32,000 nt of DNA, taken from NCBI RefSeq assembly GCF_030253515.1, contig NZ_CP124549.1, forward strand, positions 690,001 through 722,000, in the 5' to 3' direction. Positions 9,634-31,350 of this stretch are shown here, one piece after another. The translations under genes and the position numbers were made by a program. The notes under the pieces were generated by a model. It was not told the DNA's origin. It made no database searches and saw only the letters and a program-made list of their open reading frames with translations. The number at the start of each line of letters is the position of its first letter. Position 1 is the first letter of the stretch. This stretch comes from Candidatus Nanosynbacter lyticus (lineage in GTDB: Bacteria > Patescibacteriota > Saccharimonadia > Saccharimonadales > Saccharimonadaceae).

Positions 9634-10515
9634 TTATCTATGTACCATATCCATCGCCCGAATATGCGGCGGACGATGCGCTAGCTGAGGATGGCGGCGA
9701 GACGGCACAGCGATGTGAGCGCGGGAATGAGCAGTGACTTGCGGGTGGGTCAGCTCCTTTGGCTGCGGCGGTAATTTTGGCTGGGTTGGCAGTTGGTGCG
9801 GCTGGGATAGTGGGCGCTTGACAGTCGATTGCGTGTCGGTGCGTGGTGCATTAGCACGAGGTGCGGCCGCTGCAGGATTGAGCGGGCGAGTCGGGCTCGA
9901 AGGCTGAGATGAAAACGGTGGCTTCGTCAGCGGCGGGTGCGGCGGATGTGATGAGAGCGGCTTGACTGGCTGAGCCTTGACGGAAGAAAGTTTGTTGAGC
10001 GGGCGCTTGGCCGGGGCCGGCGCCGAAGCAGTGGGCTTGATCAGTGAAGCGCGTGATGGTGAGAGGGCGTACTTCGGCGGCTGGGGCTTGACGGACAGCT
10101 TGGTAAATGATGCACTTCGCGAGCGCTGGACACCACGCGGCGGCATAATGTCATGAAAGACTGCTGGTTTTTTAGGGTGAGGTTTAGCCGGTGGATTGAG
10201 AGCGGGAGTCTTTTGAGGAGCGGTAGAACGCGAGCGAGGTAAATGAGTAGAAGGTTGCGGCGGTACAACGCGAGACGCAGCCGAAGGACGAGCTGGCTGC
10301 GCGGCTACAGTTTGCCGCTGAATACTATGACGCCGAGCCGGAGCGGAGTGAGGAGAACGTGGCGCGGGTGATGTGGGAGATGCGGCGGGTACTGAAGTAG
10401 CCACCGGGCGCTGACGCGACACTGATGCTTCCGCGTCAACATCTGACACCTCGCCCTTACGACGGTTACCGAGCCGAGCTTTCTTGAATAGCTTCATCAA
10501 CTTCATCAGCGCCAC
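9634..10515 (-). CDS. Proline/serine/alanine-rich basic low-complexity protein (293 aa)
   Basis: Long ORF co-oriented with its neighbours. Strongly biased composition (P, S, A, R, K) with no globular motif. The short N-terminal MKLMKLFKKARL segment is the only non-repetitive part. Confidence 0.5.
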   Translation of the reverse strand: MALMKLMKLFKKARLGNRRKGEVSDVDAEASVSRQRPVATSVPAASPTSPAPRSPHSAPARRHSIQRQTVAAQPARPSAASRVVPPQPSTHLPRSRSTAPQKTPALNPPAKPHPKKPAVFHDIMPPRGVQRSRSASFTKLSVKPQPPKYALSPSRASLIKPTASAPAPAKRPLNKLSSVKAQPVKPLSSHPPHPPLTKPPFSSQPSSPTRPLNPAAAAPRANAPRTDTQSTVKRPLSQPHQLPTQPKLPPQPKELTHPQVTAHSRAHIAVPSRRHPQLAHRPPHIRAMDMVHR

Positions 10516-10649
10516 CCCATCCCCTGGGAGATGTCGATACCGAAAATGATTACGGTCAGCTGGTCGATATGACTCTCCTTCCTCTGATTGATTCTGTCAC
10601 CATTATACTGGTTATGCTCAGTGATTTCAAGCAGCCAACCGCTCAGCCA

Positions 10650-11117
10650 CTAGAGCAACTCATCCAGCACCGATTGCCAGTCCGGAAACTGCGGAGTACC
10701 GAAATGGATGTGCCGGCCAACAAACTCAGCGGCACCCCTGGCCGTCCGATCATCGATCAAGATATCACCGCGGCTCAGCTGTTTGACTGACGAAAAGATA
10801 ACTTTGCGAAAGAAAATATTTTCCTGACCATCACCGCCAAAATACTTCTTCACCCACGCTAGTTTATCACCCAACGCCGTCGGATTTTCCCATGGCGATG
10901 ACGAGAGGATGTATAGATCATACTTTTCCTTCAGCTTATCAACCGCCTCGAGGGCGCCTGGCATCGGATCCATCAATGCAAAAACACCCGGAATATTGTC
11001 ATATTCACCCGCAAATTTCTCAAGCATCTCAGACGGAACCTTCGTCAAGGCCGATGTAAAGTCCACCAGCACGCCGTCCATATCGAGATAGATAATTGGT
11101 TTCTTATTTTCGTTCAT
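10650..11117 (-). CDS. 5'(3')-deoxyribonucleotidase, NT5C/HAD family
   Basis: IIYLDMDGVLVDF (DxDxV HAD motif I), SSSPW, and a C-terminal ILIDDR...FGT pattern typical of NT5C-type nucleotidases. Start placed at MNENKKP (11117), which overlaps the upstream ORF by 14 nt. Confidence 0.7.
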   Translation of the reverse strand: MNENKKPIIYLDMDGVLVDFTSALTKVPSEMLEKFAGEYDNIPGVFALMDPMPGALEAVDKLKEKYDLYILSSSPWENPTALGDKLAWVKKYFGGDGQENIFFRKVIFSSVKQLSRGDILIDDRTARGAAEFVGRHIHFGTPQFPDWQSVLDELL

Positions 11118-11631
11118 CTTTACCTCTGCCAGTGAAAGATGAAAAATCACGATATGCTATATTTTTCTTCTTCGGTGCATAGCCTTTTCTGCGATGAACA
11201 AAACCATTCTGGCGAGCACGCTTTAAAGCTTCAAGTGTTGGAAACATGACCACTTCGCTCCATTCGTTTGGCAATTGACGCTGTAGAACGGCAAATTTAG
11301 GATTAATGTCTCTCACTACTACAGCCAGGATGGTCTTCATGCCTAAACAGCTCGCCAATGTTGTCCGATGCATCCCATCAACAAGCAGTAGGCCCTCATG
11401 CTCATATTCTTCAACGATAGGCGGAAGCATCACTCCACCCCCTTTTTTCTCATCTATGATGATTCCCCCTTTCTCCATCCGCAGTGTGTCTTCACCGGCT
11501 TCAAGAGTTACTCTACGCAACCACCATTGATTCTCTACCCCCGATCCGATTGCGTAATATTGGGTTGGTCTGAGACCACTAATTTTAACTTCCTCAACTG
11601 AAATATTGCTTATCAGCATAAGGGCGCTCAT
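11104..11631 (-). CDS. ParB/Srx-fold (ParB-like nuclease domain) protein
   Basis: ISGLRPTQ near the N-terminus and LLLVDGMHRT (a DGxHR-type motif) are characteristic of the ParB/sulfiredoxin fold. The start is uncertain: TTG at 11670, or ATG at 11631 or 11619. Confidence 0.5.
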   Translation of the reverse strand: MSALMLISNISVEEVKISGLRPTQYYAIGSGVENQWWLRRVTLEAGEDTLRMEKGGIIIDEKKGGGVMLPPIVEEYEHEGLLLVDGMHRTTLASCLGMKTILAVVVRDINPKFAVLQRQLPNEWSEVVMFPTLEALKRARQNGFVHRRKGYAPKKKNIAYRDFSSFTGRGKDERK

Positions 11632-11706
11632 TCTTATCAGCCAACGTCGAAGCCTGATGCAGGTTATCAATTAGCCATTCTTGCGACTTAAATCCTTTTA
11701 CCCTCA

Positions 11707-12669
11707 CTATTCTCTCCTCAACATTATTGTAAACGCCTCACTCGGAATATCAACCTTGCCAAAGCGCTTCATGCGTTTTTTGCCGCGAGCCTGTTTGGCG
11801 AGGAGCTTCTTTTTGCGGCTGACATCACCGCCATACAAATAGCCGGTGACGTCTTTGCGGTAGGCGCCGATGTTTTCGCGGGCAATGAACCTGCCACCAA
11901 TTGCCGCCTGCAGTGCCACCTCAAAGCTCTGGCGCGGTACCACGTCTTTGAGTTTTTTGACGATCTCACGGCCCAAGCCTGGCGCCTCCGAACGATGGCA
12001 CATCACGCTCAGCGCATCAACCATCTCACCCGCTACATAAAAATCCACCCGCACCAGGTCTTCCGGCTGGTAGCCCGCCAGCTCATAATTAAACGAACCG
12101 TAGCCGCTAGTTACCGACTTCAATTGATCATAAAAATCCGTCAGCAGATTTGCCAGCGGCGCCGTAAAAGAAATCAGCGCCCGCTCATCGATATAGCTGA
12201 GATTTTTCTGCCGGCCGCGCTTGGCGACAATCAGCTGAATCACTGCACCAATGTAATCCTGCGGCACCACAATTTCGCCGTCAATCCACGGCTCGCGAAT
12301 TTCTTTGATCTGCGCTGGGTCGGGTAGTTCACTAGCTGATTTGATATCCAGCTCCTCGCCATTAGTCAGGCTAACTTGATAATCCGTACTCGGATTGGTG
12401 ACGATGAGATCCAGATTATACTCACGCTCCAGCCGCTCGCGAATAATGTCCATATGAAGCAATCCCAAAAAACCAATCCGCACACCATAGCCTAGCACTG
12501 GCGAATTTTCCGGCTCAAACTGCAGTGCCGAATCGCTGAGACTTAGTTTTTCAATAGCCTCTTTCAGGTCATTATAATCTTCATTGCTCACCGGAAAGAA
12601 GCCCGCGTAGACGAAGGGCTTGACTTCTTTGTAGCCAGGCAACGGTTGGACGGTAATTTTTTCAGTCAT
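11707..12669 (-). CDS. lepA: Translation elongation factor 4 (LepA), C-terminal half (domains III, V and CTD), separated from its N-terminal half
   Basis: Begins MTEKITVQPLPGYKEVKPFVYAGFFPVSNEDY. Continues through GFLGLLHMDIIRERLEREYNLDL to GGDVSRKKKLLAKQARGKKRMKRFGKVDIPSEAFTIML. This is colinear with the second half of E. coli LepA. It may be a pseudogene fragment or an independently expressed half. Confidence 0.9.
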   Translation of the reverse strand: MTEKITVQPLPGYKEVKPFVYAGFFPVSNEDYNDLKEAIEKLSLSDSALQFEPENSPVLGYGVRIGFLGLLHMDIIRERLEREYNLDLIVTNPSTDYQVSLTNGEELDIKSASELPDPAQIKEIREPWIDGEIVVPQDYIGAVIQLIVAKRGRQKNLSYIDERALISFTAPLANLLTDFYDQLKSVTSGYGSFNYELAGYQPEDLVRVDFYVAGEMVDALSVMCHRSEAPGLGREIVKKLKDVVPRQSFEVALQAAIGGRFIARENIGAYRKDVTGYLYGGDVSRKKKLLAKQARGKKRMKRFGKVDIPSEAFTIMLRRE

Positions 12670-12680
12670 AACTGCCTACC

Positions 12681-12715
12681 ATTATATCAGTTGAGCGTTT
12701 AGCTGCTCAACTGAT
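12681..12715 (-). promoter_or_regulatory. Hairpin plus candidate promoter at the junction of island A and the lepA C-terminal half
   Basis: Perfect 11-bp inverted repeat ATCAGTTGAGC (12686-12696) / GCTCAACTGAT (12705-12715) with an 8-nt loop, directly after the stop of the 534-aa ORF. On the minus strand TTGAGC (12705-12710), an 18-nt spacer and TGaTATAAT (12681-12689) sit 11 nt from the lepA C-half ATG. Confidence 0.4.
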
Positions 12716-12719
12716 CGCA

Positions 12720-14324
12720 TCAACGGACTGGTCCATGTGGAGGCCTGATTATTCCTGCCCGTATAGCTCTAACATATTCGCCCAAGCTACCTGGCATACC
12801 GTGCCAAAATTCATCGTCATGTCGCTTCGACAAGACATCTGCCAAACGCTCGTCCTGATAGTGTTCAATTTGCTCGTATAGCTCACACAGTCGCCAGATG
12901 ATAAGCTGGTCGCTGTAGCTTGTTAAGCCTACATGTTTTAGGTTGTTAAACTGACCAACTAGCTGACGCATAATCTTAATGTTAGTATCTTCTGTAGACA
13001 GCAAGTCGCTCACGAACTCATTTATATCAAACTCTCCTAGCGGCGGTTTAACTAGGCTTATAAACTCAATAAATCCTGGTAGACACTTCTTCGCCCTCGC
13101 CTCTTCCGCCAACTTACTAAAATCTGCTTCGACACCCCAGTACAATTCTTCTTTCTCCATAGAATCACCGGCAACCAGCCTACCATCTCCAAACATATCA
13201 TCAAACTCACCGCCCATCTCCTTGACTAAAGGCTCCGCAAAACGCTTATATTCACGGAATAGTTCGACACCCTTCCCGTCTTTTATCAAACCATTGATGA
13301 CATCCATGCAGCTACTATCAGCACCATATCCGTAGAGGTTACGATAAATATCTAGTCGATCTATGCCATAATGCTTTTGATAGCGTTTGTCTCGTGTAAA
13401 GAATACACCCCTATCATAGAAAAATGCTTTAAGCTTCTCCGCCTGATCAATATAGCGATCAAGAATCAGTTCACCTAGTTTGTCGATAGCCAAACCCCTT
13501 TGATCGACTATAGTTTTCACGTCTTCCACAAAATTACGCTCACCCCGCACAGATTGCAGAGTGGCGATACCACCGTTTTTCCAAAAATAGCTTTCGCCAA
13601 CACTACTATCAGCCCCAAACCACAGCATCATGATGTCCCTCAGAGACAGATCCTCCCCCTTTTGCTGCTTGGCACAAATCTCGTCAATATTTTCGATTGT
13701 ATGTATGGTCTCCAATTTATCCTGACCCTTAGATAATTCACCGATTCTCTCATGCAGTACACCTGTCATACATGGCTCAACTCGACAGTCATCGCCGTCA
13801 ATCCCCAAAATCATTTTTATATCACCACCTTCACCCAGACACATCATGATACGAGGAATATTGTATCTACCGGTTGTGAATACAAGCATCTTAGTGATAT
13901 TTCTATGGCCAAAGGAGTCGTAACTTGATAGTGCAACCTTATACAAAAAGTCATAAATGGAGTCTGAGCCACCGGGGAACCAGCCGGTACATTGACCCTC
14001 AAGTAACGCCTGCACCTCCTCGGCTGTACCTTTTTGGGGCGTGGAAGAATCCTTATACTTACAAATTATTTCATACCACTTCCCTTGAGTCTCTCGACGT
14101 CGCTCTTGCCCTAGGCCTGTTCGGATCGCTACTTCCCTGCCATACAGCTCACCAAACTTAGCTGCCTCCAGTTCATCGGGACTATATTCCCGCAAAATTT
14201 CATATACCGCCTCAAGCGCCGCAGGATTTACCTCTGGCAAAAGTCTCTTGCTGCCAATTTCGCGAACATCAAATGTTTTGGTCTGCGGATTAAACCCTCC
14301 TAGTTCTGGACAAGCATCGATCAC
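12720..14324 (-). CDS. Hypothetical protein (534 aa), orphan; in frame with the upstream 258-aa ORF
   Basis: Long ORF with no motif I recognise. The only available start is GTG, with no SD. It shares a reading frame with ORF 14358-15134, separated by one TAG plus 11 sense codons. Confidence 0.55.
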   Translation of the reverse strand: MIDACPELGGFNPQTKTFDVREIGSKRLLPEVNPAALEAVYEILREYSPDELEAAKFGELYGREVAIRTGLGQERRRETQGKWYEIICKYKDSSTPQKGTAEEVQALLEGQCTGWFPGGSDSIYDFLYKVALSSYDSFGHRNITKMLVFTTGRYNIPRIMMCLGEGGDIKMILGIDGDDCRVEPCMTGVLHERIGELSKGQDKLETIHTIENIDEICAKQQKGEDLSLRDIMMLWFGADSSVGESYFWKNGGIATLQSVRGERNFVEDVKTIVDQRGLAIDKLGELILDRYIDQAEKLKAFFYDRGVFFTRDKRYQKHYGIDRLDIYRNLYGYGADSSCMDVINGLIKDGKGVELFREYKRFAEPLVKEMGGEFDDMFGDGRLVAGDSMEKEELYWGVEADFSKLAEEARAKKCLPGFIEFISLVKPPLGEFDINEFVSDLLSTEDTNIKIMRQLVGQFNNLKHVGLTSYSDQLIIWRLCELYEQIEHYQDERLADVLSKRHDDEFWHGMPGSLGEYVRAIRAGIIRPPHGPVR

Positions 14325-14357
14325 ATAGGACGAAAACCAGTCAGGATATCTGCCGGC

Positions 14358-15134
14358 CTACAGTGCTGCTTTCCATTCACCTAGACGCCCAAGCTGTGCA
14401 GCGCAAAAGTTATCGACCCGCCTAGTCCGCCCATCATGATGACTGTACCAAGCTCCATCGAGACCGAATCGTTCACTCCAACGAGGTGATGAAGATGATG
14501 ACTGACATAACTCTTCTTCACTAGGCAAACTGTTGACGATCTTACTTTCGGCCACCGGTATCGACATAATATATGAACGATACGGATATCTGTCCGGACC
14601 AGTATACCAGTTAGGTTTGGTGGTACTTTGCTGAGGCGGCAGTGGCGATTCTTCCTCCTCTGAGTCTGTTGTTTTACCTAGGATATACCGAGTTAGCAAC
14701 CTCAGCTTATATGTATCGTCAGCCGGATTTTTTGAACCGTATACATCCCCCAGGCGGCTATACCTCTTGACTAGTATCTCCAGGTTGCCATCCCGCCATT
14801 CACTACCTAGCCTAGTAAAGATATCACTTGCGAGTAGTTGCTCCAACTCCTCTGGAGTAGCATGCTCAGTCATGACGTCAAAAACTGCAAATATTCTGTC
14901 ACTTCGTTCCTGAGACTTCCAGCCCTCCTTTGGATCTTCGTACTCATTCAAAGATATACGGAGAGCTTCCGCCATTTGTCCGGCTACATCGAACGCGTCG
15001 GGTGCTTCTTCTCGAAGTTTCGCTACAACCTGACCCATCTTGTCAGCGGAAATATAGTCTTTGCGAAGCTCACCTTCTAGGGTCGGATCAAGAGTGGGTC
15101 TGTCAGGTGTCTCCCGATATTTATCAATCATCAT
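14358..15134 (-). CDS. Hypothetical protein (258 aa), orphan
   Basis: The ORF has an acidic segment (TDSEEEESP). The 46-nt intergenic region upstream consists of TTGACA (15166-15171), a 17-nt spacer, TAAAAT (15143-15148), 8 nt, then the ATG. Confidence 0.55.
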   Translation of the reverse strand: MMIDKYRETPDRPTLDPTLEGELRKDYISADKMGQVVAKLREEAPDAFDVAGQMAEALRISLNEYEDPKEGWKSQERSDRIFAVFDVMTEHATPEELEQLLASDIFTRLGSEWRDGNLEILVKRYSRLGDVYGSKNPADDTYKLRLLTRYILGKTTDSEEEESPLPPQQSTTKPNWYTGPDRYPYRSYIMSIPVAESKIVNSLPSEEELCQSSSSSPRWSERFGLDGAWYSHHDGRTRRVDNFCAAQLGRLGEWKAAL

Positions 15135-15180
15135 TGACTGGCATTTTACTACTTTCTTAATTATTTGTCAATATACTATG

Positions 15181-16884
15181 TCAGCGGGCCGCACCCTGGC
15201 GAATTTTCTTAAGCGTCTCAGCAATCTTCGCCTGTTGCTCGGGGCTGTAAAAGTAACCTATTGAGCTATTCACACCATTCGCCCTTCTGCCACGACATGC
15301 CAGTGGTTCCCCGAAGTCAGGATCAACCTCATTCAAAACCTTAATCGCCTTCTGAAACGCTGGTGATCCACAGTGCAAAGCGTTCATAAGGTCTGACGTT
15401 GCTAGATAGCCTTCGGGAGCTGGGCGCATATAGCCTCTTTTCAAGAAATAGTCACTTATAGCCTCTACTTGCTCCCGCGAAAGGCCTTCACAAATTTTTA
15501 CCCGACCCTTTTGACAAGAAAACCTATAGATTGAAGGTTGCAAGCCCAATGAGTGCATGGCATTTTTAATTGTCTTTCGACACACCCCAAAGCGCTTCAT
15601 TGCTGCACTTACCATAATACATCCCTCCGGGGGTGGAGGCGCAAACAATCCCCTGTCATGTGCTTTTTCTATGATCACCGCTTGCTGCTCTGGACTAAAA
15701 AACTCACGAACCTGAGGAGAACGATGCCATGAACCCTCGGACAGGATACCGTCTTCTTTAAGACTCCTCGCTATCTTTGCTATCGTCATATCACTTACAC
15801 CCAGAACATTGGCGAGAGCTTTGAGCGTCAGATACCCTTCTGGTGGCGGTAGATTAAACATACCTTTTTGCTTAAGTACTTCTTCTATCAATTCGGCCTG
15901 CTCTCTAGTAAAAACTGGTTTCTGCTTACCACACCAATCCCGCTTGGCTACCTCCCCCAAGCAGCCATCCCGCTCCAACCGGGTGGCAATGGTCGCAATG
16001 ACACGATACTTCACACCGAGCTTATCTGCTAGCCCATTGATCGTCAGGCCCCCCATTGCCTCAATCATTCGACGAGGGCTCAAATAATTACCTTGACGTT
16101 GCCTACCCATCTCAACTGGTTGCCGCAGATCATCTGCTAATGCCCCCACTAAGTGTGGAACAAAGTAATCATCACAACGCACCATCGCACCACAGCCCGG
16201 ATACTGTGCCATCACCTCCATAAGCTGTGTTTTCGTATATGCAGTCAGCTTTGCACGCTCTTCTTCTGGCAGCCGCGTTGTATCAAATACAAAGGTACCG
16301 TTGCCGTAGGCGTCACAAATCAGTACCGTCCGCTCGAGTGGTGGGATAGTTACCTCATGGTATGGCTCCTGGCGCATCATCACTGTCCCCACTTCCCCAC
16401 GACGAATCTGTAATGCTTCGCCGCTCGGCTCAATACCAAATTCATTTGCCAATATGAACAGCAGTATTTTCAGCCGTGGTTGGCGAGTAATCCACTCACG
16501 GTGGGGCGTCTCGGACATACCGGCGTCAGGTCCGGACCTATCATCGGGTGGCACAAAGACATTGCCAGTCGATTCAATCTGGCCAATAGCCGTATCAATA
16601 GCCATGAGCTGCTCCGCTTTGTCGGCAATATGGTCGAGCAGCCCGCCGATTTCCTCCACACCGTAGTAAGCAAACGCCGCATTCTCACTTTCAGCAGAAC
16701 TGTCTAGCCAAATCGTCAGCTGGTGCTTGTATGCCTGCACCATCTCATCAACCAGCTGGATCAATTTATCCAAGGCATCCTCAGCGTAGGTATCGACATT
16801 TTCAACCGTCAACGGTTGATTAATAATTTCCTCTACGCTGCTTGCAAAGTCCTTGCCATGATCAATACTACCGAGTCGCTCCAT
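15181..16884 (-). CDS. Hypothetical protein (567 aa) with four tandem HTH-like C-terminal modules
   Basis: The N-terminal 268 aa have no known motif. The C-terminal 300 aa are four repeats, with PEG(Y/C)(L/I) at residues 350, 421 and 492, an exact 71-aa period. Each has the form LAxxLGVSxxTIxKxxxxL ... (F/Y)SPEQQAxIxE. The ATG at 16884 is preferred over the track TTG at 16890. Confidence 0.6.
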   Translation of the reverse strand: MERLGSIDHGKDFASSVEEIINQPLTVENVDTYAEDALDKLIQLVDEMVQAYKHQLTIWLDSSAESENAAFAYYGVEEIGGLLDHIADKAEQLMAIDTAIGQIESTGNVFVPPDDRSGPDAGMSETPHREWITRQPRLKILLFILANEFGIEPSGEALQIRRGEVGTVMMRQEPYHEVTIPPLERTVLICDAYGNGTFVFDTTRLPEEERAKLTAYTKTQLMEVMAQYPGCGAMVRCDDYFVPHLVGALADDLRQPVEMGRQRQGNYLSPRRMIEAMGGLTINGLADKLGVKYRVIATIATRLERDGCLGEVAKRDWCGKQKPVFTREQAELIEEVLKQKGMFNLPPPEGYLTLKALANVLGVSDMTIAKIARSLKEDGILSEGSWHRSPQVREFFSPEQQAVIIEKAHDRGLFAPPPPEGCIMVSAAMKRFGVCRKTIKNAMHSLGLQPSIYRFSCQKGRVKICEGLSREQVEAISDYFLKRGYMRPAPEGYLATSDLMNALHCGSPAFQKAIKVLNEVDPDFGEPLACRGRRANGVNSSIGYFYSPEQQAKIAETLKKIRQGAAR

Positions 16885-16891
16885 GTGCAAT

Positions 16892-16920
16892 ATTATAGCA
16901 TTTTATACTATTATTGTAAA
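16892..16920 (-). promoter_or_regulatory. Near-consensus sigma70-type promoter for the 567-aa island ORF
   Basis: Minus strand: TTTACA (16915-16920), a 17-nt spacer, TGcTATAAT (16892-16900), then 7 nt to the ATG at 16884. This implies a leaderless or nearly leaderless mRNA. Confidence 0.55.
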
Positions 16921-17062
16921 TGATGAGCTCTTCCTCTCAATTACAACTAATCGCCTTAATCCGGTCACATATTCTTTACTAAACCCCATAACAACACACT
17001 GATGTCTTTATCAAATTGAAAATTTAGTTCTCATTGGTGGATTATCGGGTCAGTGAGGGCAC

Positions 17063-18052
17063 TCAATCCTCTATAATAACGTCCTCAACAGGTCGACGTT
17101 TGGAATAGGCCTGCTGCTTGCCATAGCCAATGCGCAGCAAAATAGTTGGATATTCCCCATCAAGATCAAGAGTTTTTGCCATTTCTGCGGCAATTTCTGG
17201 CTGCTCGTTCGGCTGATTTAGATAGGCATGAGCGATCCCAAGCTCCGTGGCAGTCAGCAAGAAACGCTGCAGCGTCCGACCCAAGTTCACCCATTCGCGC
17301 CGACTATTTTCTCTTGTCGTAAAAAGAACCAGATGAGAAGCCGATGCTATCTTTTCGCGATCAGCCTTATTCTGCGTCTTAGCATTGATAGCCATCGCCA
17401 TGATTGGCTCAGCCATCCAGCGCGGCACATTAGGCGCACCAAACACGGCATAGCTCAGCCCATCAAGTGTTTGATCTTGATGTTTTTTGTTAAATCGCAT
17501 CCAGCTTTTCAATTCAGCCTTAAACGCCTCATTTTGCATTTGATGCGTATTCCCCCGAAGAACGTATTGTTCAATATCATTAAACTGTTTAGTTTGACGC
17601 GCATAGTAATGAACCGACACTCCATCTTCACCGCGAATCGCCTGCAGTCTCTTTAGCGCATCTAGCGCGATTTCCTCGCCAGTATAAATACTACGATTGG
17701 TCTGCCGTAAATCTATCTGCTCAAACAGTGGACTGGACTTGACGTCCGCTCCTTCCGTGAGTGTAACTGCGATATCTCCCGTATCACCAACCGAAACGGT
17801 AGATTTATAGCCCTTAGTTTGCGCTGCCAAGCAGAGGTTCTCAGCCGCACAGCCCAGACTCACGAATAGCTCCCTGTTGTCAGGGTCGACTACTGGTAGC
17901 TTCCTGTCAAAATCAGGATGAATTTCCACCACTGACCCGTCGCGACGGAATTTCCAAGGCTGAATATTGTGCCCTGACGGTGCTTTGACTGCCTGCTTAA
18001 CTAGAAACTTAAAATCGTCTAATGATATAATGTTTCCTGTTTTCTTCGTCAT
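17063..18052 (-). CDS. Nitroreductase-family protein (Acg-like, two-lobed FMN-binding oxidoreductase)
   Basis: The N-terminal AVKAPSGHNIQPWKF motif is typical of nitroreductases. The 329-aa length fits the tandem-domain Acg-type subgroup. Promoter TTGACA (18116-18121), 16-nt spacer, TATACT (18094-18099) lies upstream. Confidence 0.65.
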   Translation of the reverse strand: MTKKTGNIISLDDFKFLVKQAVKAPSGHNIQPWKFRRDGSVVEIHPDFDRKLPVVDPDNRELFVSLGCAAENLCLAAQTKGYKSTVSVGDTGDIAVTLTEGADVKSSPLFEQIDLRQTNRSIYTGEEIALDALKRLQAIRGEDGVSVHYYARQTKQFNDIEQYVLRGNTHQMQNEAFKAELKSWMRFNKKHQDQTLDGLSYAVFGAPNVPRWMAEPIMAMAINAKTQNKADREKIASASHLVLFTTRENSRREWVNLGRTLQRFLLTATELGIAHAYLNQPNEQPEIAAEMAKTLDLDGEYPTILLRIGYGKQQAYSKRRPVEDVIIED

Positions 18053-18372
18053 AATCTTCTCAAATACCCTCTCATATTGTTACTGTTGAACCCAGTATAC
18101 TTACCAAAAAAATGGTGTCAAATAAAAGCCCCTATGACCAAGATACTCTCTACTATCCGCACTGCCAAGGCTCAGCGCTTTGAAAACCTTATCAGCACCG
18201 GGGGAAACAAAAACCCCCCGTCCGAAGCTAGCAACGACGAGGGGAGAAAAGCCAAGGATCACCGCCGTATACCGGTTCATCTTTGTCCTGGCTATCTTAC
18301 ACCGGCCCCGTGACCTGTATATTCTGCTATAGTTTGCTGGATTTGCGTGTGTCGTACTTGACTTCACCATTG

Positions 18373-18435
18373 TCATCCAAAAGACAGCACAATAGCCATC
18401 ACGATACCTACCATAAATAATCCTGCCTTTTTCAT
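18373..18435 (-). CDS. Candidate 20-aa hydrophobic peptide (MKKAGLFMVGIVMAIVLSFG)
   Basis: Translated by hand. TATAAT (18452-18457, minus strand) and the SD agaaagaaggg lie upstream of the ATG at 18435. It sits in a 536-bp stretch with no other convincing gene. A 20-codon ORF can arise by chance. Confidence 0.25.
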   Translation of the reverse strand: MKKAGLFMVGIVMAIVLSFG

Positions 18436-18588
18436 ATCCCTTCTTTCTGATATTATACGACAGCACCGACTACACAAAAATAAGCTATTATTGTCAAGCA
18501 AAGCTTAGTTGGCCGCAAGCTTTACAACTCTCTTTCAGCGATCAGGCCACGCCATAGCTTACATTATCACGGTTCACCGACAAATTAC

Positions 18589-19497
18589 TTATGAGAGCGC
18601 CAGCTCGCCAATATGCCTCCAAAACTGACGCAGATCCTTAACGTCTACGCCTTCAATATCGTAGTTTGAAAGCACACCATGCCACGTGCTGGGCACAGCG
18701 CTCTTATCTAGTAGACGGTACTTGCTGAACACAAAACCATGCGGTAGCCATGCCATGCTTATGACATCATCGTTGGCACATGGATATTCCAATATAGGAA
18801 AAGAGCAATCATATGTATCAACAATATTTCCTGGATCAATTGCTCCATAATGCTTCCACTCCCCATAGCAAAAATCAAAACCTAGTGGCAGAAGAGCCAT
18901 TTCGACACCCTCTCCCCCCTTATCTCTAGATGTCCGCATCTCCTCTACAAATGAATCCAGCGCTTGACGAGCAAGAATATCGAGCCAATCCGCCCCAAAC
19001 ATCATCGAGTCGAAATACTCGTCAATTTTTCTACAATCTTCTTTACTGAGGTTATTTGGGTCGGTTTTGGCAGTAGGCACCGTATCGTTTAAGTCACGAG
19101 GCGTGACGAGCATGGTGTCGATTGTTTTTAGCCGTGGATCTATAAATACCATTTTTGCGCCATAGTAACAGGCATTGCTCGGATAAAGGCTCGAAAATAC
19201 GAACTGGTCAAGACCAAAGTGGCAATCAAGCCTGTATGTATTAGTTCTACGGCCTGATAACTGACTGCTCGACAGTATCCCCATCTCCATGAACCGCCCA
19301 GGGAAATCACCTGAGTTAGTATAGTGCAAAAGTGGCAATCGCTCAAGACGTGCTCGTATCTCCCGAACAGCTAACTGCTCACCCTCTGATAAATCTCTCT
19401 GACTCTCCGGATGGTTATGAAAATTATCGCGCAATCGACCGGCATCAACATATTGCGCCATTCTTTCTGGTAGAACAAGCGCCTCGCTAGATGACAC
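18589..19497 (-). CDS. Hypothetical protein (302 aa), orphan
   Basis: GTG start with a gaaggat SD. Promoter TTGACA (19592-19597), 17-nt spacer, CATAAT (19569-19574) lies upstream. No motif I can name with confidence. Confidence 0.55.
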   Translation of the reverse strand: MSSSEALVLPERMAQYVDAGRLRDNFHNHPESQRDLSEGEQLAVREIRARLERLPLLHYTNSGDFPGRFMEMGILSSSQLSGRRTNTYRLDCHFGLDQFVFSSLYPSNACYYGAKMVFIDPRLKTIDTMLVTPRDLNDTVPTAKTDPNNLSKEDCRKIDEYFDSMMFGADWLDILARQALDSFVEEMRTSRDKGGEGVEMALLPLGFDFCYGEWKHYGAIDPGNIVDTYDCSFPILEYPCANDDVISMAWLPHGFVFSKYRLLDKSAVPSTWHGVLSNYDIEGVDVKDLRQFWRHIGELALS

Positions 19498-19699
19498 GCC
19501 GCCAATCCTTCTGGATCTTAAAACTGAGAAAGCCCATACAAAAACCTGCTAGCATCATAGTAAACTTAATTATGGTATAGCACTTACTTTTTGTCAAATG
19601 GGCCACCTGACCACATTGACCAAACTTTATCCCAGCCCTTTTCGCAACACGTATCCGCGGGGTGCTTTTGCAATTCAGTTAGGCCAATTGTTTGTGGAT

Positions 19700-20347
19700 T
19701 CATGGCTTACTCCTTATCACTAATTTACTCAACTGCCACACCACCATCACAATAGACCAGCCAAACAATACCACCTCCGACACCACCGTCAGCGGTACCG
19801 AGACTTCACCTGCATAGTATGTACCGACCATCTTTAGAAATGCAACACACACGCTCGTTAATATAACTATCCAAGATTTCGTAATGATCCCTGCCGCAGT
19901 AACAAATGCAGCCAACGCCAGTGCCATCCAGTGCAGTCCTGCGAACAGTTGACTCGCAGATAATACACTTATTTCTGGAGTAATCGGCAATCCATTCACC
20001 GGATAAACGAGGCGTCCGAGCGCCATCATCGCATGAAATGCACCAATTGCCACAACGATACCTAGAGCAAGCACGATACCCATGCCAACAGGATATCGCC
20101 CCCTCAGTTTAGAGTACAAAACCACGACGACAGCTAACAATATCGACGCTCCACATGCTAGCATTTCACCTGCCGCCTGCAAGACGACCTGATGTTGCTG
20201 CACCCACGCTAGCACACCTGGAGCGTTTGCTGAGGGTATCGGCAGTGACACTGCGATACTAATGCAAGCCGTGGCAAGCAAACCAAAGCTCATCAGCCAT
20301 ATAATATTACCGATATACGAAATATGCCGACTACTTTGTTTTACCAC
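19700..20347 (-). CDS. Polytopic membrane protein (215 aa), unknown function
   Basis: About 6-7 hydrophobic helices. GTG start preceded by an AAGGAG SD that lies in the tail of the chimeric lepA-derived small ORF. Confidence 0.55.
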   Translation of the reverse strand: MVKQSSRHISYIGNIIWLMSFGLLATACISIAVSLPIPSANAPGVLAWVQQHQVVLQAAGEMLACGASILLAVVVVLYSKLRGRYPVGMGIVLALGIVVAIGAFHAMMALGRLVYPVNGLPITPEISVLSASQLFAGLHWMALALAAFVTAAGIITKSWIVILTSVCVAFLKMVGTYYAGEVSVPLTVVSEVVLFGWSIVMVVWQLSKLVIRSKP

Positions 20348-20351
20348 CCTC

Positions 20352-20492
20352 TCACTCCTTCGTCATATATTTCTTTAGCGTCACCGTATCGCCCACCCGC
20401 GCTTCACGGGTGGTTTTTAGGTTGGTGACGATGTAGCCGGGTAGCGGTGTTTCCTTTCCGGAATATTCAGTCACCCCAATTGCTCCATACAT
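20352..20492 (-). CDS. Chimeric 46-aa ORF: 18 novel residues fused in frame to the duplicated lepA segment
   Basis: [46 protein letters not shown]. The underlying promoter is TTGTCA (20522-20527), a 17-nt spacer, TACTAT (20499-20504), then 6 nt to the ATG at 20492. Probably a by-product of the rearrangement rather than a gene. Confidence 0.3.
   Translation of the reverse strand: MYGAIGVTEYSGKETPLPGYIVTNLKTTREARVGDTVTLKKYMTKE
20370..20438. repeat. 69-bp direct repeat of the lepA domain II end, internal copy
   Basis: 66 of 69 nt are identical to 21235-21303. In the lepA frame it encodes [23 protein letters not shown]. All 3 differences are synonymous Leu codon changes. Confidence 0.9.
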
Positions 20493-20539
20493 AATGCTAT
20501 AGTATTTTATTTTATAAATAATGACAACTCACTCTTAAC

Positions 20540-21220
20540 TCACTGCGCCTTCGGCAAAAAACCGCGCGCTACGAGCGCCCGCCAAGCCGTGTCCGCCGAG
20601 GTGGATGGTGGCTGCGGCGTTGAAAATCCCTTATCGGGATAGCTCTTTATTCGCTCATAATCGCCTAGCATCAACGTCAACATCATGGCGGCACTGCCAT
20701 AGGTTACCTCATATAACTGATAATATGCCTCTACTGTTGTCGGCTGACTAGTCACATACAGTCGCGGCCGCGGGTGCGGCCACTGAGCCTCGGCGGTTGC
20801 CAAAAATCGACGCGTCATATACGGTTTATGGATTAAAATGATATCCTCAGCCTGAATCGCCGCCCCCGCCAGCAACTGAGCCGAACGAGTGATATTTTCG
20901 CCGGTATTAGCGGCTTGGTGTTCAAACAGGATTGCCGATTTCGGCACCGCCAAACGTTGGAGTCGTCGCCCCAGCAGTGTCGCTTCGGTTTCTGTCGCCC
21001 CATGATAGGGATTAGCAAATCCCGACACCACAATCCATGAGCTAATGCCCGCATGATATAACTCGGCCGCTCGCTCGGCACTATCGATCATAGCTCCCGC
21101 ACCGCCGATCACGATAGCATCCGCCCGCGCCGGCAGCCGACTCTCAACGCAAAGATACTCCCACAATACCTGGAGGTGATGCCAGTCTTGATCGGTGAGG
21201 GTTAGCTGGCTACGCGGCAT
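20540..21220 (-). CDS. DUF218 / YdcF-family protein
   Basis: AIVIGGAG...WIVVSG...EATLLGRRL...[19 protein letters not shown]...[12 protein letters not shown] follows the DUF218 (YdcF/SanA-like) pattern. The ATG lies 14 nt past the end of the repeated lepA segment and overlaps the out-of-frame tail of the lepA N-half ORF. Confidence 0.65.
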
Positions 21221-22191
21221 GTATACGCTCTTGGTTTCTTCAACGTCACCGTATCGCCCACCCGCGCTTCACGGGTGGTTTTCAGGTTGGTGACGATGTA
21301 GCCAATTTCGCCAGTGTCCAGCGACGGGTCGGGGATCATACCGGGACTGAGATGGCCAACCTCCAATGCCAACCCATTCGCACTGGTCGCCATCATATGA
21401 ATCGCTTCACCCTTTTTGATCTGACCATCCACCAGCCGCACGTACAAAATCACGCCGCGATAATCATCATAATAACTATCAAAAATTAGCGCCCGAGTTG
21501 GGAGATCAGCCAACGCAACATCAGGATGCTCGACCGCCAGTGGCGAAGTCGGCGCCGGGATTCGCTCAACGATCGCCGCCAAAACTTGATCGACATTCTG
21601 CCCGGTTTTGGCGGAAATATGAATAATCTCGCTTTCATCGCAGCCCAGCAGATTAATCACCTGCTTGGACACCCGTGGCACATCGGCAGCCGGCAAATCA
21701 ACTTTGTTCAGCGCTGGGATAATTATCAAATCCTGCTCCATCGCCAAGTACACATTCGCCAGCGTCTGCGCCTGAATACCCTGGCTAGCGTCAACCACCA
21801 ATACCGCCCCTTCGCAGGCCTGCAAACTACGCGACACCTCATAGCTAAAATCGACATGGCCAGGTGTGTCGATGAGGTTAAGGTCGTAAGACCCAGCTAG
21901 TGGCAATCCTTCCGATGAATCGATAGCCCTGTCGCTGGCGTTGCCTGCGACATTCGATTGAGAGGAAGTGATTGCCGCTGGCTGGCGGTAGTGATACTTC
22001 ATCCGCACCGGCGCGAGCTTAATCGTAATCCCCTTCTCACGTTCCAAATCCATACTATCCAGCAGCTGCGACTTCATCTCGCGCTTCTCCACCGTCCCCG
22101 TCATCTCCATCATCCTATCCGCCAGCGTCGACTTGCCGTGGTCGATGTGGGCAATGATGCAAAAATTACGAATACTGGTCAGCGGTTTCAT
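21202..22191 (-). CDS. lepA: Translation elongation factor 4 (LepA), N-terminal half (G domain plus domain II), truncated
   Basis: [34 protein letters not shown] and SAKTG are the G motifs. Domain II ends in [10 protein letters not shown]. An extra segment of about 26 aa ([33 protein letters not shown]) precedes DTPGH relative to E. coli LepA. The start overlaps the murJ stop (TGATG). Confidence 0.9.
21235..21303. repeat. 69-bp direct repeat, copy contiguous with the lepA N-terminal half
   Basis: Partner of 20370-20438. It forms the last authentic lepA codons (…[23 protein letters not shown]) before 12 unrelated codons and a stop. Confidence 0.9.
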
Positions 22192-23852
22192 CAGCGCCTC
22201 AACTTACTCATATCAAATCGCGAAAACAGCAGACGTTTCATTCGCGCCAAGACCGGGTCGATCTCTGGCAACTTTAGCCACTTGGACAGCGCGCCATACA
22301 CGACAAAATTGAAAATCGTAATCGCCCCAAACTTGGGCAGCGCCCCCAAAAAGCTATCGTCTGAGGCCCGGAACGGAATTACTAACACGCTGACGTAGCA
22401 CGCCACTGCTAGTGGCACCGCGGCTAACGCCATCTTGGCGACCGCTTTGACAAACGTCGCGTCAAACAGCTGTGGCATGCGCCGACCTAAAATGACGCAC
22501 AAAATCACCACCTCAACAAAGGCGACAATTGACTGCGCCCATGCCAGGCCATACGGGCCAAGCTTCGCATAGTAGCCAAGTATCACGGCCAGCGCCACAT
22601 TCAACACAATCGCAAAAATCGACACATACATCGGTGTCTTGGTATCCTGCTGTGCATAAAATCCGCGCGCCACCATGTGATACACCGTCCTGAATAAAAT
22701 TGCCATTACCAGACAACCGAGAATGTTCGCCATAACCGGATCGCCGTTATTATTGATAAAGTGCACCACGTAGCCACGCGCGAAAAACGTCACCACACAA
22801 ATCGGGATAATCATCCAAATCACCGTCCTGAGGAATGACCGCAGATCTCTACGAAATAGATCCGGACGCTCCGAGGCGAGGCGTTCAGTTAGCTGCGGAA
22901 AGGCAGCGTTGGAAATAGCAACGCCGATGAGGTTGATCGGCATCATGTGTAGTGTCAATGCTTGATTATAACGACGAATAATACCATCACCCATCCGCGA
23001 CGCCAAGTTAACTTCGGCTAGGCTGACCACATAATCCATTCCCTGATCAATCGAGCGCGCCGGCAGCAGCGACAAAACTTTACGAAAGCCGCGATTGCGC
23101 CAATAAATCTTGAAATCATAATCAAAACCGAGTCCGATTAGCCCGACCGCACTGACGATGAGCTGCAGCACCGATCCGAGCACCACGCCAAGCGCCACGC
23201 CCATAATGCCGCCGTCAAAAATTTGCCAGCCGAACAGGTTGATGCCGTTGGTGAACCACAACGTACCGATGATAATCCCGACATTGTACAGCATCGGCGC
23301 CAGCGCATAGAAGGTGAAGCGACCGACCGCTTGCTGGATGCTAGCAATCACCGCTGCCACCGCAAAGATCAGCGGATTTACCGCGATCACTCGCATCATA
23401 CTGACCGCCAATGCGTGACCAGCCTCGCTTAGCCCCGGCGCGATCAGATATTTCATCAGCGGATCAGCAAAAATGATGATTAGAACGCTCGTCACCAGCG
23501 TCACCAGCGCCATGAGATTGATCATGCTCGAACTAATTTGCCAGGCTGATTGCTTGTTGCCCTTGATCCAGCGCTCGTTAAATACCGGTATGAAGGTAAC
23601 GCTCAGCGCCCCCGACACCAAAATCGCAAACATGAAATCCGGCACCATGAACGCCGCCGTATAGGCGTCCAGCCCGACTGGATAGCCAGCCAAGTGAGCC
23701 TTCTCGTTGGGAAAATACGCCGCATTCAAAAAGCGATCGCGCAGCAGCCCCAGCAAGCTTGACAGCAACATCGAGCTCGCTAAAATCGTGGCGGCTAACT
23801 TGACTGTCAGCCGCTGATTGATCTTGTTGACAACATTACGAACGCGCCCCAT
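22191..23852 (-). CDS. murJ: Lipid II flippase MurJ (MviN family)
   Basis: 553 aa with about 14 TM helices. The N-terminal [14 protein letters not shown]... and [24 protein letters not shown] are typical of MurJ. Confidence 0.85.
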
Positions 23853-23858
23853 ACCAAT

Positions 23859-25727
23859 TTATGCGTGCAGTTTTGCTTCCTTTGGCAGTTTCGTCCCCGA
23901 AAGAATCTCGTCCACCGCCGCTTCTTCTAATGTCTCATCTTTGAGCAGCGCCTCAGCCAATTTATCGAGGAACGGACGATTGGCTTTGAGCACCAGCATT
24001 GCCCGTTGTTTGGCCTCGGTGATCAGCTGCGACACTTCCTGATCGATCAGTTTAGCAGTCTCATCCGAGTACGGCCGCTCGCGAGTCATCTTATCAAACA
24101 TCAGCCCGCCGTTGTCTTCGTGAAATACTTGGTCGCGTAGGCCCTTACCCATACCCTGCTCGATGATCATATCACGGGCAATCTCGGTGGCTTTACGCAG
24201 GTCTGAGCCAGCACCGGTGGTGATACCATCATCACCGTAAATAATTTGCTCGGCAATTCGGCCGCCCATGGCCCGAGCCAAGATATCCTTGAACTCATAA
24301 ACATTAGTGTAGCTCTTATCCTCTGGCGGCAAGAACCAGGTGACACCGCCGGTGCCGCCGCGCGGAATGATCGTCACTTTGTGAACTGGGTCGGAGTCCG
24401 GCAAGACATGACCGACGATGGCGTGGCCAGCTTCATGATACGCCGTCAATTCCTTCTCATGGTCGTTCATCACCTTGGCTTTGCGCTCTGGGCCGATAGC
24501 CACCCGCTCGAACGCCTCGGTCAACTCCTCGTTGGTAATTTTCTTCTTGTTACGGCGTGCAGCGATAATTGCTGCTTCATTGGCGATATTAGCGAGATCC
24601 GCCCCCGATGAGCCAGCTGTCTTGGCGGCCAATTTATCGAGGTCAACTGTCTCGTCGGTTGGCTTTTTCTTGAAATGAACTTTCAGAATCGCCTCGCGGT
24701 CTTTGCGCTCCGGCAGGGTAATTGTCACTCGCCGATCAAACCGACCCGGCCGCAGCAATGCTGGGTCCAGCACGTCCGCTCGGTTGGTCGCCGCTAGCAC
24801 GATCACATTAGTGTCGCCGTCAAAGCCATCCATCTCCACTAGAATCTGGTTCAAGGTCTGCTCGCGCTCATCGTGTCCGCCACCCATACCCGAGCCGCGC
24901 TTGCGGCCCACCGCGTCAATCTCGTCGATAAAGATGATGCACGGCGCATTTTTCTTAGCTTTAGAAAAGAGATCGCGCACCCGGCTGGCCCCAACGCCGA
25001 CGAACATCTCCACAAACTCCGAACCAGAAATCGAGAAGAACGGCACGCCTGCCTCACCAGCCACTGCCCGTGCCAGCATAGTTTTACCGGTACCCGGATT
25101 ACCGACTAGCAAGACGCCCTTCGGAATCTTAGCACCCAGCTCCTTGTATTTTTTCGGGTGCTTCAGGAAATCGACAACCTCTTGCAAATCCTGCTTGGCG
25201 TTATCATTGCCAGCAATATCCTCAAACACAATTTTCTCTTTATCCTCGCCATACAGCCGTGCCTTTGACTTACCAAAGCCCATCGCTTGATTATTCTGCC
25301 CCTGCGCCTGGCGCATCATGAACATGAAGAATATCACGATGATCACCACCGGCACGATCGTCACCGTCAGACTCCACAGCACCTCACCGGTTTGCGATGG
25401 CGGCAGAACATTGATCTCAACCTTGGCGTCTTTGTTCAAACCTTGCTCATAAATCGTACTACCGGATTCCTTGACTGATTTCTCGGTCGGCTGTTTTTGG
25501 CCTTTGGGGGTAATTTTCAGATCGTTGCCCTGGATATCGATCTTGGCAATTTCTCCAGCATTTGCCCGGCGCACTACGTCAGTCAACGCCACATTCTTCA
25601 AATTGCTATTTGGTGACAGCGCCGCGTACACTGCCAGCCCAAGAAACACAATGATTGCCCAAAACAACCCCAGTCGAGCAACCTGCCCGACCCCTTTCTT
25701 AGTATTCTTTGGCGTCTTTCCTGCCAT
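23859..25727 (-). CDS. ftsH: ATP-dependent zinc metalloprotease FtsH
   Basis: Two N-terminal TM helices, Walker A GNPGTGKT, Walker [12 protein letters not shown] motif [19 protein letters not shown], and zinc site HEAGHA. Confidence 0.95.
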
Positions 25728-27760: not shown

Positions 27761-27837
27761 TGGTAGCACCGGGTGGACCCGAACCACCGACCTCAGGCTT
27801 ATGAGTCCTGCGCTCTAACCAGCTGAGCTACGGTGCC
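27761..27837 (-). tRNA. tRNA with CAT anticodon (elongator Met or lysidine-modified Ile2; not distinguishable by eye), CCA encoded
   Basis: The reverse complement GGCACCGTAGCTCAGCTGGTTAGAGCGCAGGACTCATAAGCCTGAGGTCGGTGGTTCGGGTCCACCCGGTGCTACCA folds as a cloverleaf with D stem GCTC/GAGC, T stem GGTGG/CCACC and anticodon loop CTCATAA. TGgTACAAT (27849-27857) lies just upstream. Confidence 0.85.
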
Positions 27838-31273: not shown

Positions 31274-31350
31274 TGGTTGCGGGGGTAGGATTTGAACCTA
31301 CGACCTTTTGGTTATGAGCCAAACGAGCTACCAGGCTGCTCTACCCCGCG
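31274..31350 (-). tRNA. Initiator tRNA-fMet (CAT), CCA encoded
   Basis: The reverse complement CGCGGGGTAGAGCAGCCTGGTAGCTCGTTTGGCTCATAACCAAAAGGTCGTAGGTTCAAATCCTACCCCCGCAACCA is almost colinear with E. coli tRNA-fMet. It keeps the C1xA72 mismatch diagnostic of bacterial initiators. Confidence 0.9.

Follow-up and report, generated by a model that had tools for sequence, protein, structure and literature searches.

Why a gene as conserved as lepA should lie in two pieces, and why the end of one piece should be present twice, are the questions raised by a 32,000-nucleotide (nt) stretch of Candidatus Nanosynbacter lyticus (contig NZ_CP124549.1, positions 690,001 to 722,000 of the forward strand), referred to here as the window. 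LepA/EF4 is among the most conserved bacterial proteins and is kept in most genomes of the candidate phyla radiation. In the window, its N- and C-terminal halves (N-half and C-half) are separate open reading frames (ORFs) with cargo genes between them, and a 69-nt segment of the N-half end recurs inside this gap. Very likely, the gap is a hotspot in which cassettes are exchanged by homologous recombination through the conserved lepA ends, with the 69-nt repeat as one footprint of such an exchange. The repeat itself is an ordinary recombination footprint, and the surrounding split-EF4 cargo hotspot is the more interesting result.

The order along the minus strand is the lepA N-half, the DUF218 gene, the internal copy of the repeat followed by TAT ATG ACG AAG GAG TGA, seven further ORFs and the lepA C-half. 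The features on which the argument depends are as follows.

21202..22191 (−): lepA N-half ORF, 329 amino acids (aa), GTPase domain and domain II (Pfam GTP_EFTU 1.4e-53, GTP_EFTU_D2)
21235..21303 (−): repeat copy 1, the N-half 3′ end now in use (G21, T61, G63); probably the incoming allele, which came with the cassette
20540..21220 (−): DUF218 cargo gene, 226 aa (Pfam DUF218 9.7e-18)
20439..20539 (−): 3′ flank of the cassette, with a promoter-like TTGTCA-17-TACTAT at 20527..20499 and the T5orf172 relic
20439-20483 (−): relic, about 45 nt, of a T5orf172/PDC-S57 cargo gene, AIGVTEYSGKETPLP
20370..20438 (−): repeat copy 2, the resident N-half 3′ end, now displaced from the N-half (A21, C61, A63)
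20352..20369 (−): canonical N-half terminus YMTKE-stop, TAT ATG ACG AAG GAG TGA, containing the first TATGAC
20352..20492 (−): chimeric ORF of 46 aa (T5orf172 relic, copy 2 and YMTKE), called as a gene in the contigs L085 and L088
12720..20347 (−): remaining cargo array, the "island A" of the initial annotation
12681..12710 (−): promoter-like site of the C-half, TTGAGC-18-TG-TATAAT, ending 11 nt before the ATG at 12669
11707..12669 (−): lepA C-half ORF, 320 aa, domains III and V and the LepA C-terminal domain (Pfam LepA_C 2.6e-42, EFG_C 4e-21)

The DUF218 cassette and its flanking repeat

A repeat search recovers 20370-20438 and 21235-21303 as one two-copy direct-repeat family of 69 nt with 66 identical positions (96%), by far the longest direct repeat within 10000-24000. 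A repeat of this kind cannot be chance. When translated on the minus strand, both copies give the same 23-residue lepA peptide, and the three differences between copy 1 and copy 2 are all silent and fall in Leu codons (CTG/CTA in NLK and TTG/CTA in TLKK). The initial annotation had described this pattern, together with the tatatgac that follows the internal copy and the gtcata hexamers at 20362-20367 and 12665-12670, and all of its coordinates are correct. The leader of the DUF218 gene (21221-21234) is joined straight onto the KK codons. The C-terminus of the window N-half is altered in consequence: since this leader comes directly after copy 1, the protein has a 14-residue ending of its own.

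The arrangement was compared among eight conspecific contigs, found through exact matches to the window's proteins and with a C-half protein that is 100% identical. Two of these, L085 and L088, share the arrangement of the window. L088 comes from an independent assembly and matches the window collinearly (99.5% over 10.8 kb), which rules out an assembly artefact as the source of the structure. Between L087 and the window, the difference is an exact indel of 865 bp with the repeat at its borders; L087 and L090-92 are without the DUF218 segment and have a single lepA N-half 3′ end, which demonstrates a filled/empty polymorphism. In L090-92 the single tail carries the copy-2 states A21, C61 and A63, followed by an identical YMTKE-stop and the A215 gene, and these strains and the window also agree fully over the 110 nt upstream of copy 1. 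Because the tail of L090-92 equals copy 2 with the same downstream gene, comparison with the strain alleles identifies copy 2 as the native N-half end, and copy 1 appears to have arrived with the cassette.

Copy 1 and the cassette are identical in L081, L082, L085 and L088. In L081 and L082, the 100% identical cassette and copy 1 are located behind an N-half body that resembles L023 (97.5%) far more than the window (only about 85%). An identical unit on two diverged backgrounds indicates recent horizontal spread of the DUF218 cassette. The exact DUF218 protein is also found on three further metagenome contigs, and homologous units occur in L009, L010 and L012. The segment has flanking direct repeats, a single copy at the conspecific empty sites, and one resident-type and one donor-type repeat. 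It appears that the 865-bp DUF218 segment is a recombination-mediated insertion that is strain-variable and recent.

This agrees with the initial annotation, which had read a 796-bp DUF218 cassette between 69-bp repeats as inserted by recombination, and the exact indel in L087 bears this out. It had further proposed a Campbell-type integration of a circle with a foreign lepA fragment. Of this, the homologous insertion from another allele holds, and a circular donor is indistinguishable from linear DNA that recombined via a relic already in place. Its inference of another strain's allele from the silent-only divergence fares differently in its two parts. An origin of copy 1 in another allele fits the data, and the silent-only pattern in itself is unremarkable. 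In other species, functional tails show four to eight silent changes relative to copy 1 and encode an invariant peptide. The divergence of the two copies probably falls in this between-species range, and the invariance of the peptide accounts for its silent character.

Natural transformation of Saccharibacteria with linear DNA that carries homology arms is demonstrated (PMC10633639). Homologous recombination is on this account the most likely agent, and RecA-type recombination following natural transformation is the presumed form. In the proposed mechanism, a donor segment of 865 bp, composed of an N-half 3′ end of another allele, the DUF218 gene and 107 nt of flank, would recombine with the resident N-half 3′ end. 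The crossover would fall to the left of position 21 of the repeat, or still further upstream. Copy 1, the incoming tail, would then become the N-half terminus, and the resident tail (copy 2), with its YMTKE-stop and downstream gene, would be pushed 865 bp away. The 46-aa chimeric ORF is probably a by-product of this insertion.

Some further properties of the repeat and its surroundings are recorded here. Each repeat copy contains a hairpin with a 7-bp stem, CCACCCG-N7-CGGGTGG (20393-20413 on the plus strand in copy 2), followed by a plus-strand T-run. It is terminator-like on the strand antisense to lepA, and the pairing is not conserved in other alleles. At 20345-20363 (−), the terminal N-half codons ACG AAG GAG TGA contain AAGGAG, a Shine–Dalgarno sequence located 8 nt ahead of the GTG with which the next gene, A215, begins, and the TKE pattern recurs in the N-half tails of other species. 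The sequence before copy 2 (…VTEYSGKETPLPGY) was considered as a displaced C-half start, that is, a tandem or circle joint; this was rejected, as it aligns as the T5orf172 relic. A candidate origin of copy 2 in L081 and L082 from the tail of their L023-like N-half background gave no clean match.

A two-piece lepA and its cargo gap

Whether the break in lepA is new to this strain is the next question. With the N-half as query, one genome per GTDB species was scanned, which gave 80 loci; 79 of them bear the titles Candidatus Saccharibacteria, Nanosynbacter, Nanosynbacteraceae, Saccharimonas or Saccharimonadaceae. The exception, L077 (JBLMYZ010000035.1), carries the label of an Acidobacteriota metagenome-assembled genome, yet has a Saccharibacteria-type murJ and split-lepA locus and is probably mis-binned. 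P0289 is likewise named Acidobacteriota. The split and its conservation are demonstrated by these loci: both halves are separate ORFs, 0.4-8.4 kb apart, in all 61 species loci that contain both, and the conspecific strains are likewise all split (0.4-8.6 kb with these included). The related genomes TM7-075, -076 and -087 have the split as well.

An invariant VGDTVTL[KR]K, in nearly every case followed by Tyr, always precedes the stop codon of the N-half by a few codons. The endings include YFE-stop, YIG-stop and YFTKETK-stop, and YMTKE-stop is found in L041. The C-half of the window starts as ...gtTATGACTGAA, with the second TATGAC inside it (gt TATGAC TGAA, 12670..12665). A TATAAT box is located 5-12 nt before the C-half start in nearly all loci, and this despite upstream sequences from several unrelated families. 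Judged from sequence, the C-half mRNA may accordingly be leaderless or near-leaderless.

The two halves abut on the intact protein. The N-half aligns up to residue 279 of Escherichia coli LepA and the C-half from residue 283, with nothing missing or duplicated; in the solved EF4 structures 3CB4, 2YWE and 5IMQ, the N-half reaches chain residues 279-283 and the C-half begins at 283-284. The cut is therefore in the linker between domains II and III, and by Pfam and structure alignment the LepA/EF4 domain set (GTPase, II, III, V and the LepA-specific C-terminal domain) is complete and collinear, in two pieces. For the N-half, the ratio of nonsynonymous to synonymous divergence (dN/dS) is 0.05-0.11, and for the C-half it is 0.014-0.075; dS ranges from 0.6 to more than 2. 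These values point to strong purifying selection on both. Among the best 120 database matches of the C-half, all but one are stand-alone proteins of approximately 320 aa. Recent transfer was considered as a cause of the high cross-species identity of the C-half protein and rejected. Its nucleotide identity is 75-89% with saturated dS, so the protein identity reflects purifying selection.

An intron or intein does not explain the gap. The Rfam search gave only two tRNAs and no intron RNA, and Pfam detected no intein/Hint or recombinase domain bridging the halves. In addition, there is a stop after the N-half, and the C-half has an independent promoter and ATG. What is found instead is two ORFs that cover the whole protein, an interdomain cut and purifying selection on both parts. 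Since the gene is split in all 61 loci, the halves abut, both are under purifying selection and no intron or intein is present, lepA is a long-standing two-piece gene in this group and not one newly disrupted in this strain. The two polypeptides presumably reassemble into a working EF4. Database labels of both halves read "GTP-binding protein LepA" or "hypothetical", and annotators could take the halves for pseudogenes.

The gap between the halves is very probably a long-lived hotspot that collects, loses and reshuffles co-oriented accessory genes. In 62 loci, the gaps hold 292 ORFs in 83 clusters, in shuffled combinations and almost all co-oriented with lepA. The content includes DUF218, three NUDIX families, MazG-like proteins, DUF6994, SemiSWEET, nitroreductase, GrpB, an S51 peptidase, a methyltransferase, a DNA-alkylation-repair protein, a poly(A)-polymerase/Schlafen fusion, a T5orf172 protein that matches the PADLOC candidate PDC-S57, and several large proteins without a recognised domain. 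No integrase or transposase was found in the cargo by Pfam on the window ORFs tested. A T5orf172/GIY-YIG-superfamily gene adjoins the N-half tail in nine loci, and the window keeps only the 45-nt relic; in L010 this gene is located at 12958-13566.

The signature described for DUF218 recurs at other cassettes. L010 corresponds to L009 with a ~930-bp A215 cassette added, on whose two sides 119 nt of the N-half end are duplicated. Likewise, L023 is L020 with an additional ~1.9-kb nitroreductase block, at whose borders ~100 nt of the C-half start are duplicated, and this relic keeps the upstream sequence found before the functional C-half in L020 and L022. A C-half-start relic precedes the nitroreductase cassette in eight loci, always ending at one same junction. 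Extra relics of lepA ends are present in 19 of 84 sequences (83 fetched loci and the window). From this recurrence it appears that lepA-end relics travel with cassettes and can pair with the functional gene end of a recipient.

The cargo array of the window contains the following genes.

19700-20347 (−): membrane protein
18589-19497 (−): ORF of 302 aa
17063-18052 (−): nitroreductase
15181-16890 (−): protein of 569 aa with multiple winged helix-turn-helix (wHTH) domains
14358-15134 and 12720-14324 (−): c11 gene, broken by a nonsense change

Most of the window cargo genes have their own promoter-like site, and their proteins gave no match against PADLOC. The c11 gene is one 804-aa ORF in the conspecific L088 and L093, and is found as 258 and 534 aa in the window through a single nonsense change at 14360 (minus-strand T, where L088 has G). 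In other strains it is A302 that is broken (L085, L086, L088) or the nitroreductase (L087, L089), and from these sequences the cargo seems dispensable. In L090-L092 the 4.6-kb region 13700-18322 is missing, and with it the 5′ part of c11 and the genes of the 569-aa wHTH protein and the nitroreductase. At the deletion junction, GCAGAA|CAATCG, there is at most 2 nt of microhomology, so the deletion is illegitimate.

The GTPase domain of the N-half carries two hypervariable insert segments on the minus strand, at approximately 21800-22000 and 21500-21600. In these segments the window is like L001-L007 (91-95%), and its murJ, ftsH and the remaining N-half are closest to L009, L010 and L012. This mosaic falls inside an essential-looking gene. 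A wholly foreign N-half relative to murJ and ftsH was rejected, as the discordance is limited to the two segments. Elsewhere in the window there are two tRNA-Met (CAT) genes 3.5 kb apart (27761-27837 and 31274-31350, minus strand), and a proline-rich, low-complexity ORF of 293 aa at 9634-10515 (−), within a stretch of reversed GC skew and the highest G+C content (GC) of the window (0.59).

Weighing the proposed recombination hotspot against its alternatives

Several observations weigh against cassette exchange through the ends of a long-split lepA. In L081 and L082, a patch of eight silent differences is confined to copy 2, and the tail of their L023-like background does not match it cleanly. 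The junction between the cassette flank and the tail is common to L009, L010 and L012 at 81-87% identity, with a decayed tail copy (13-15 differences, including amino-acid changes). The junction thus predates this event and the unit moved whole. The initial annotation had named the same DUF218 and internal-copy arrangement in all relatives, with identical repeats, as a sign of old fixed structure, and this is found in part. No recombination intermediate was seen; the circle or tandem junction had zero matches in metagenome contigs, as did a control chromosomal junction. The direction is probably insertion; a repeat-mediated deletion from a filled ancestor, with a crossover in the first 20 nt, would give the same empty site. 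The function of a two-piece EF4 would follow from selection signatures.

Contiguous lepA in related Saccharibacteria is a further point of this kind. It forms at least 120 protein clusters of 590-614 aa, in which the same invariant tail and head are joined by a short variable linker (VGDTITV[RK]R, then AHATE, SQSHD and others, then PLPGYK). In neighbour-joining (NJ) trees, contiguous forms (L084, P0271-P0389) intermingle with the split L047, L050, L080 and L051. Neither state is monophyletic: monophyly of the split forms was recovered in 1 of 200 bootstraps and that of the contiguous forms in 11 of 200, whereas the whole group is monophyletic in 200 of 200. The NJ root depends on outgroups at approximately 50% identity, and no count of split/contiguous transitions was derived from these trees. 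The shared KK-Y terminus would argue for one origin of the split allele, followed by later transfer or re-fusion, and either transfer or reversion of the split state may have taken place.

The polarity of the DUF218 event could be the reverse, with tail-DUF218-tail as the ancestral state and the DUF218-less strains formed by recombination between the 69-nt repeats. Direct repeats of this length and 96% identity are substrates for deletion, the unit with its flanking tails is old (L009, L010 and L012), and a crossover in the first 20 nt leaves exactly the tail of L090-92. Against this, the empty-site tail of L087 is another allele (T15, C21, T27) that is not derivable from the window copies. 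The identical cassette and copy 1 on diverged N-half backgrounds speak for recent spread, and copy 2 keeps the canonical terminus and its translational coupling to A215, as in L010 and L012. Deletion is improbable as the direction of the event, and insertion is preferred; cassette gain and loss may both occur.

A homing origin, in which a GIY-YIG/T5orf172 gene cut lepA and created or spreads the split in the manner of free-standing endonucleases of T4-like phages, is very unlikely. T5orf172 is the first cargo gene in eight loci (L014, L018, L019, L024, L025, L027, L028 and L032) and its relic adjoins copy 2 in the window, and phage genes split by endonuclease insertion do retain function (PMC2988022). 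However, just 9 of 62 loci have the gene, its match is to the candidate defence family PDC-S57 (2.7e-58) and not to a characterised homing enzyme, and there is no known cleavage site. The proposal also concerns the origin of the split and not the 69-nt repeat.

The initial annotation held that lepA was recently intact, and that a 7.69-kb mobile island with a 6-bp TATGAC duplication was followed by a DUF218 circle integrated in Campbell fashion. Its DUF218 half fits the data, both hexamers exist, and the GC of the island (0.44-0.49) is lower than that of the flanks (0.52-0.56). As a whole, the model is scarcely tenable. No intact lepA is found in any of the 61 species loci or the eight conspecific contigs. 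The first hexamer is inside the canonical N-half terminus YMTKE-stop and not at an island boundary. The tail (21 nt after KK) and the head (24 nt around the start of the C-half) share a substring of 6 nt or more in 10 of 62 real loci, and random tail/head pairings do so in 18.6% of cases; the TATGAC match is not significant. Joining the hexamers does give an open frame, though hardly the ancestral junction, as contiguous relatives read VGDTITV[RK]R-xxxxx-PLPGYK with a different 5-aa linker, and neither ...KKYMTEKITVQPLPGY nor KKYMTEKITVQ. The repeat search detected no inverted repeats at 12671 and 20361, and Pfam detected no transposase or integrase domain in the island ORFs. The content of the island also differs piecemeal among conspecific strains, with the 4.6-kb deletion in L090-92 and strain-specific pseudogenes, and not as a unit. 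Taken as a target-site-duplication island, the locus has no duplication at its true ends, no mobility genes and no uninterrupted target in close relatives.

It is equally hard to credit an integron-like, site-specific system in which a recombinase encoded elsewhere uses the lepA-end sequence as the attachment site for circular cassettes: the cassettes are co-oriented single genes with the same sequence repeated at boundaries and a hairpin-capable inverted repeat in the 69-mer, but the duplicated segments vary in length and end point (69, 119 and ~100 nt; N-half tail or C-half head), unlike a fixed att core, the relic is absent from most boundaries, no integrase was found by Pfam among the ORFs tested in the 32-kb window, the cassettes have their own promoter-like sites, and the hairpin is not conserved across alleles.

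A broader form of the homologous-exchange reading is put forward tentatively. A whole lineage of host-associated Saccharibacteria could use a two-polypeptide EF4, with the lepA gap as a group-wide landing pad whose ends are so nearly invariant that any relic-bearing cassette is insertable, by ordinary homologous recombination, into any genome of the group, with the recipient end becoming the next relic. This would make it a RecA-based analogue of an integron, and the split itself would be transferable or revertible between lineages.

Relation to known systems

The split-lepA cargo hotspot appears to be undescribed. No paper with both lepA (as a whole word) and Saccharibacteria was found in full-text literature, and nothing relevant was found on split lepA in Saccharibacteria or Patescibacteria. 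A clade with a stable two-piece EF4 would be a natural experiment on the cooperation of EF4 domains on the ribosome. The gap is a well-defined, strain-variable accessory locus of oral and gut Saccharibacteria and could be a marker for strain typing. Since these bacteria are naturally transformable, it could also be a ready-made neutral insertion site with universal homology arms.

The DUF218 event shares with Campbell-type or double-crossover insertion the flanking direct repeats that represent the homology, of which one is donor-type and one resident-type, together with the single-copy empty site and the lack of any need for a dedicated recombinase. It differs in that the target is the 3′ end of a separate half-gene, so that nothing is inactivated, and in that other species have the unit too, joined internally in the same way.

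Homology-facilitated illegitimate recombination in natural transformation combines one homologous anchor with one illegitimate junction. By analogy, this process could have made each relic junction initially, e.g., the T5orf172 fragment joined to GGCTAC. No microhomology is demonstrable at the junction of the T5orf172 relic and copy 2, and the window event differs from this process in having reused a pre-existing junction.

Integron arrays resemble the gap as linear, co-oriented and mostly single-gene cassettes that differ between strains. In contrast, the locus has no intI or other integrase and no attC, its boundaries are variable-length relics of lepA ends or nothing at all, and its cargo is not promoterless but carries promoter-like sites of its own.

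The "genes in pieces" of T4-like phages include the Aeh1 nrdA split by mobE, T4 gene 60/39 and gp43A/B (PMC2988022). As in these, a conserved single-polypeptide enzyme is present as two ORFs around inserted DNA, both are kept, and they presumably reassemble. Here the gene is on a bacterial chromosome and encodes a translational GTPase, and the gap is filled by up to 8.6 kb of changing cargo and not by one endonuclease gene.

Variable loci between conserved core genes can be exchanged by transformation, as with the pneumococcal capsule locus between dexB and aliA. The lepA gap shares with such loci the conserved flanks that act as homology arms, the strain-variable content, a naturally competent organism and mosaic flanks. 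What sets it apart is that the flanks are the two halves of one gene, and that partial duplicates of these flanks inside the array mark the boundaries of the cassettes.

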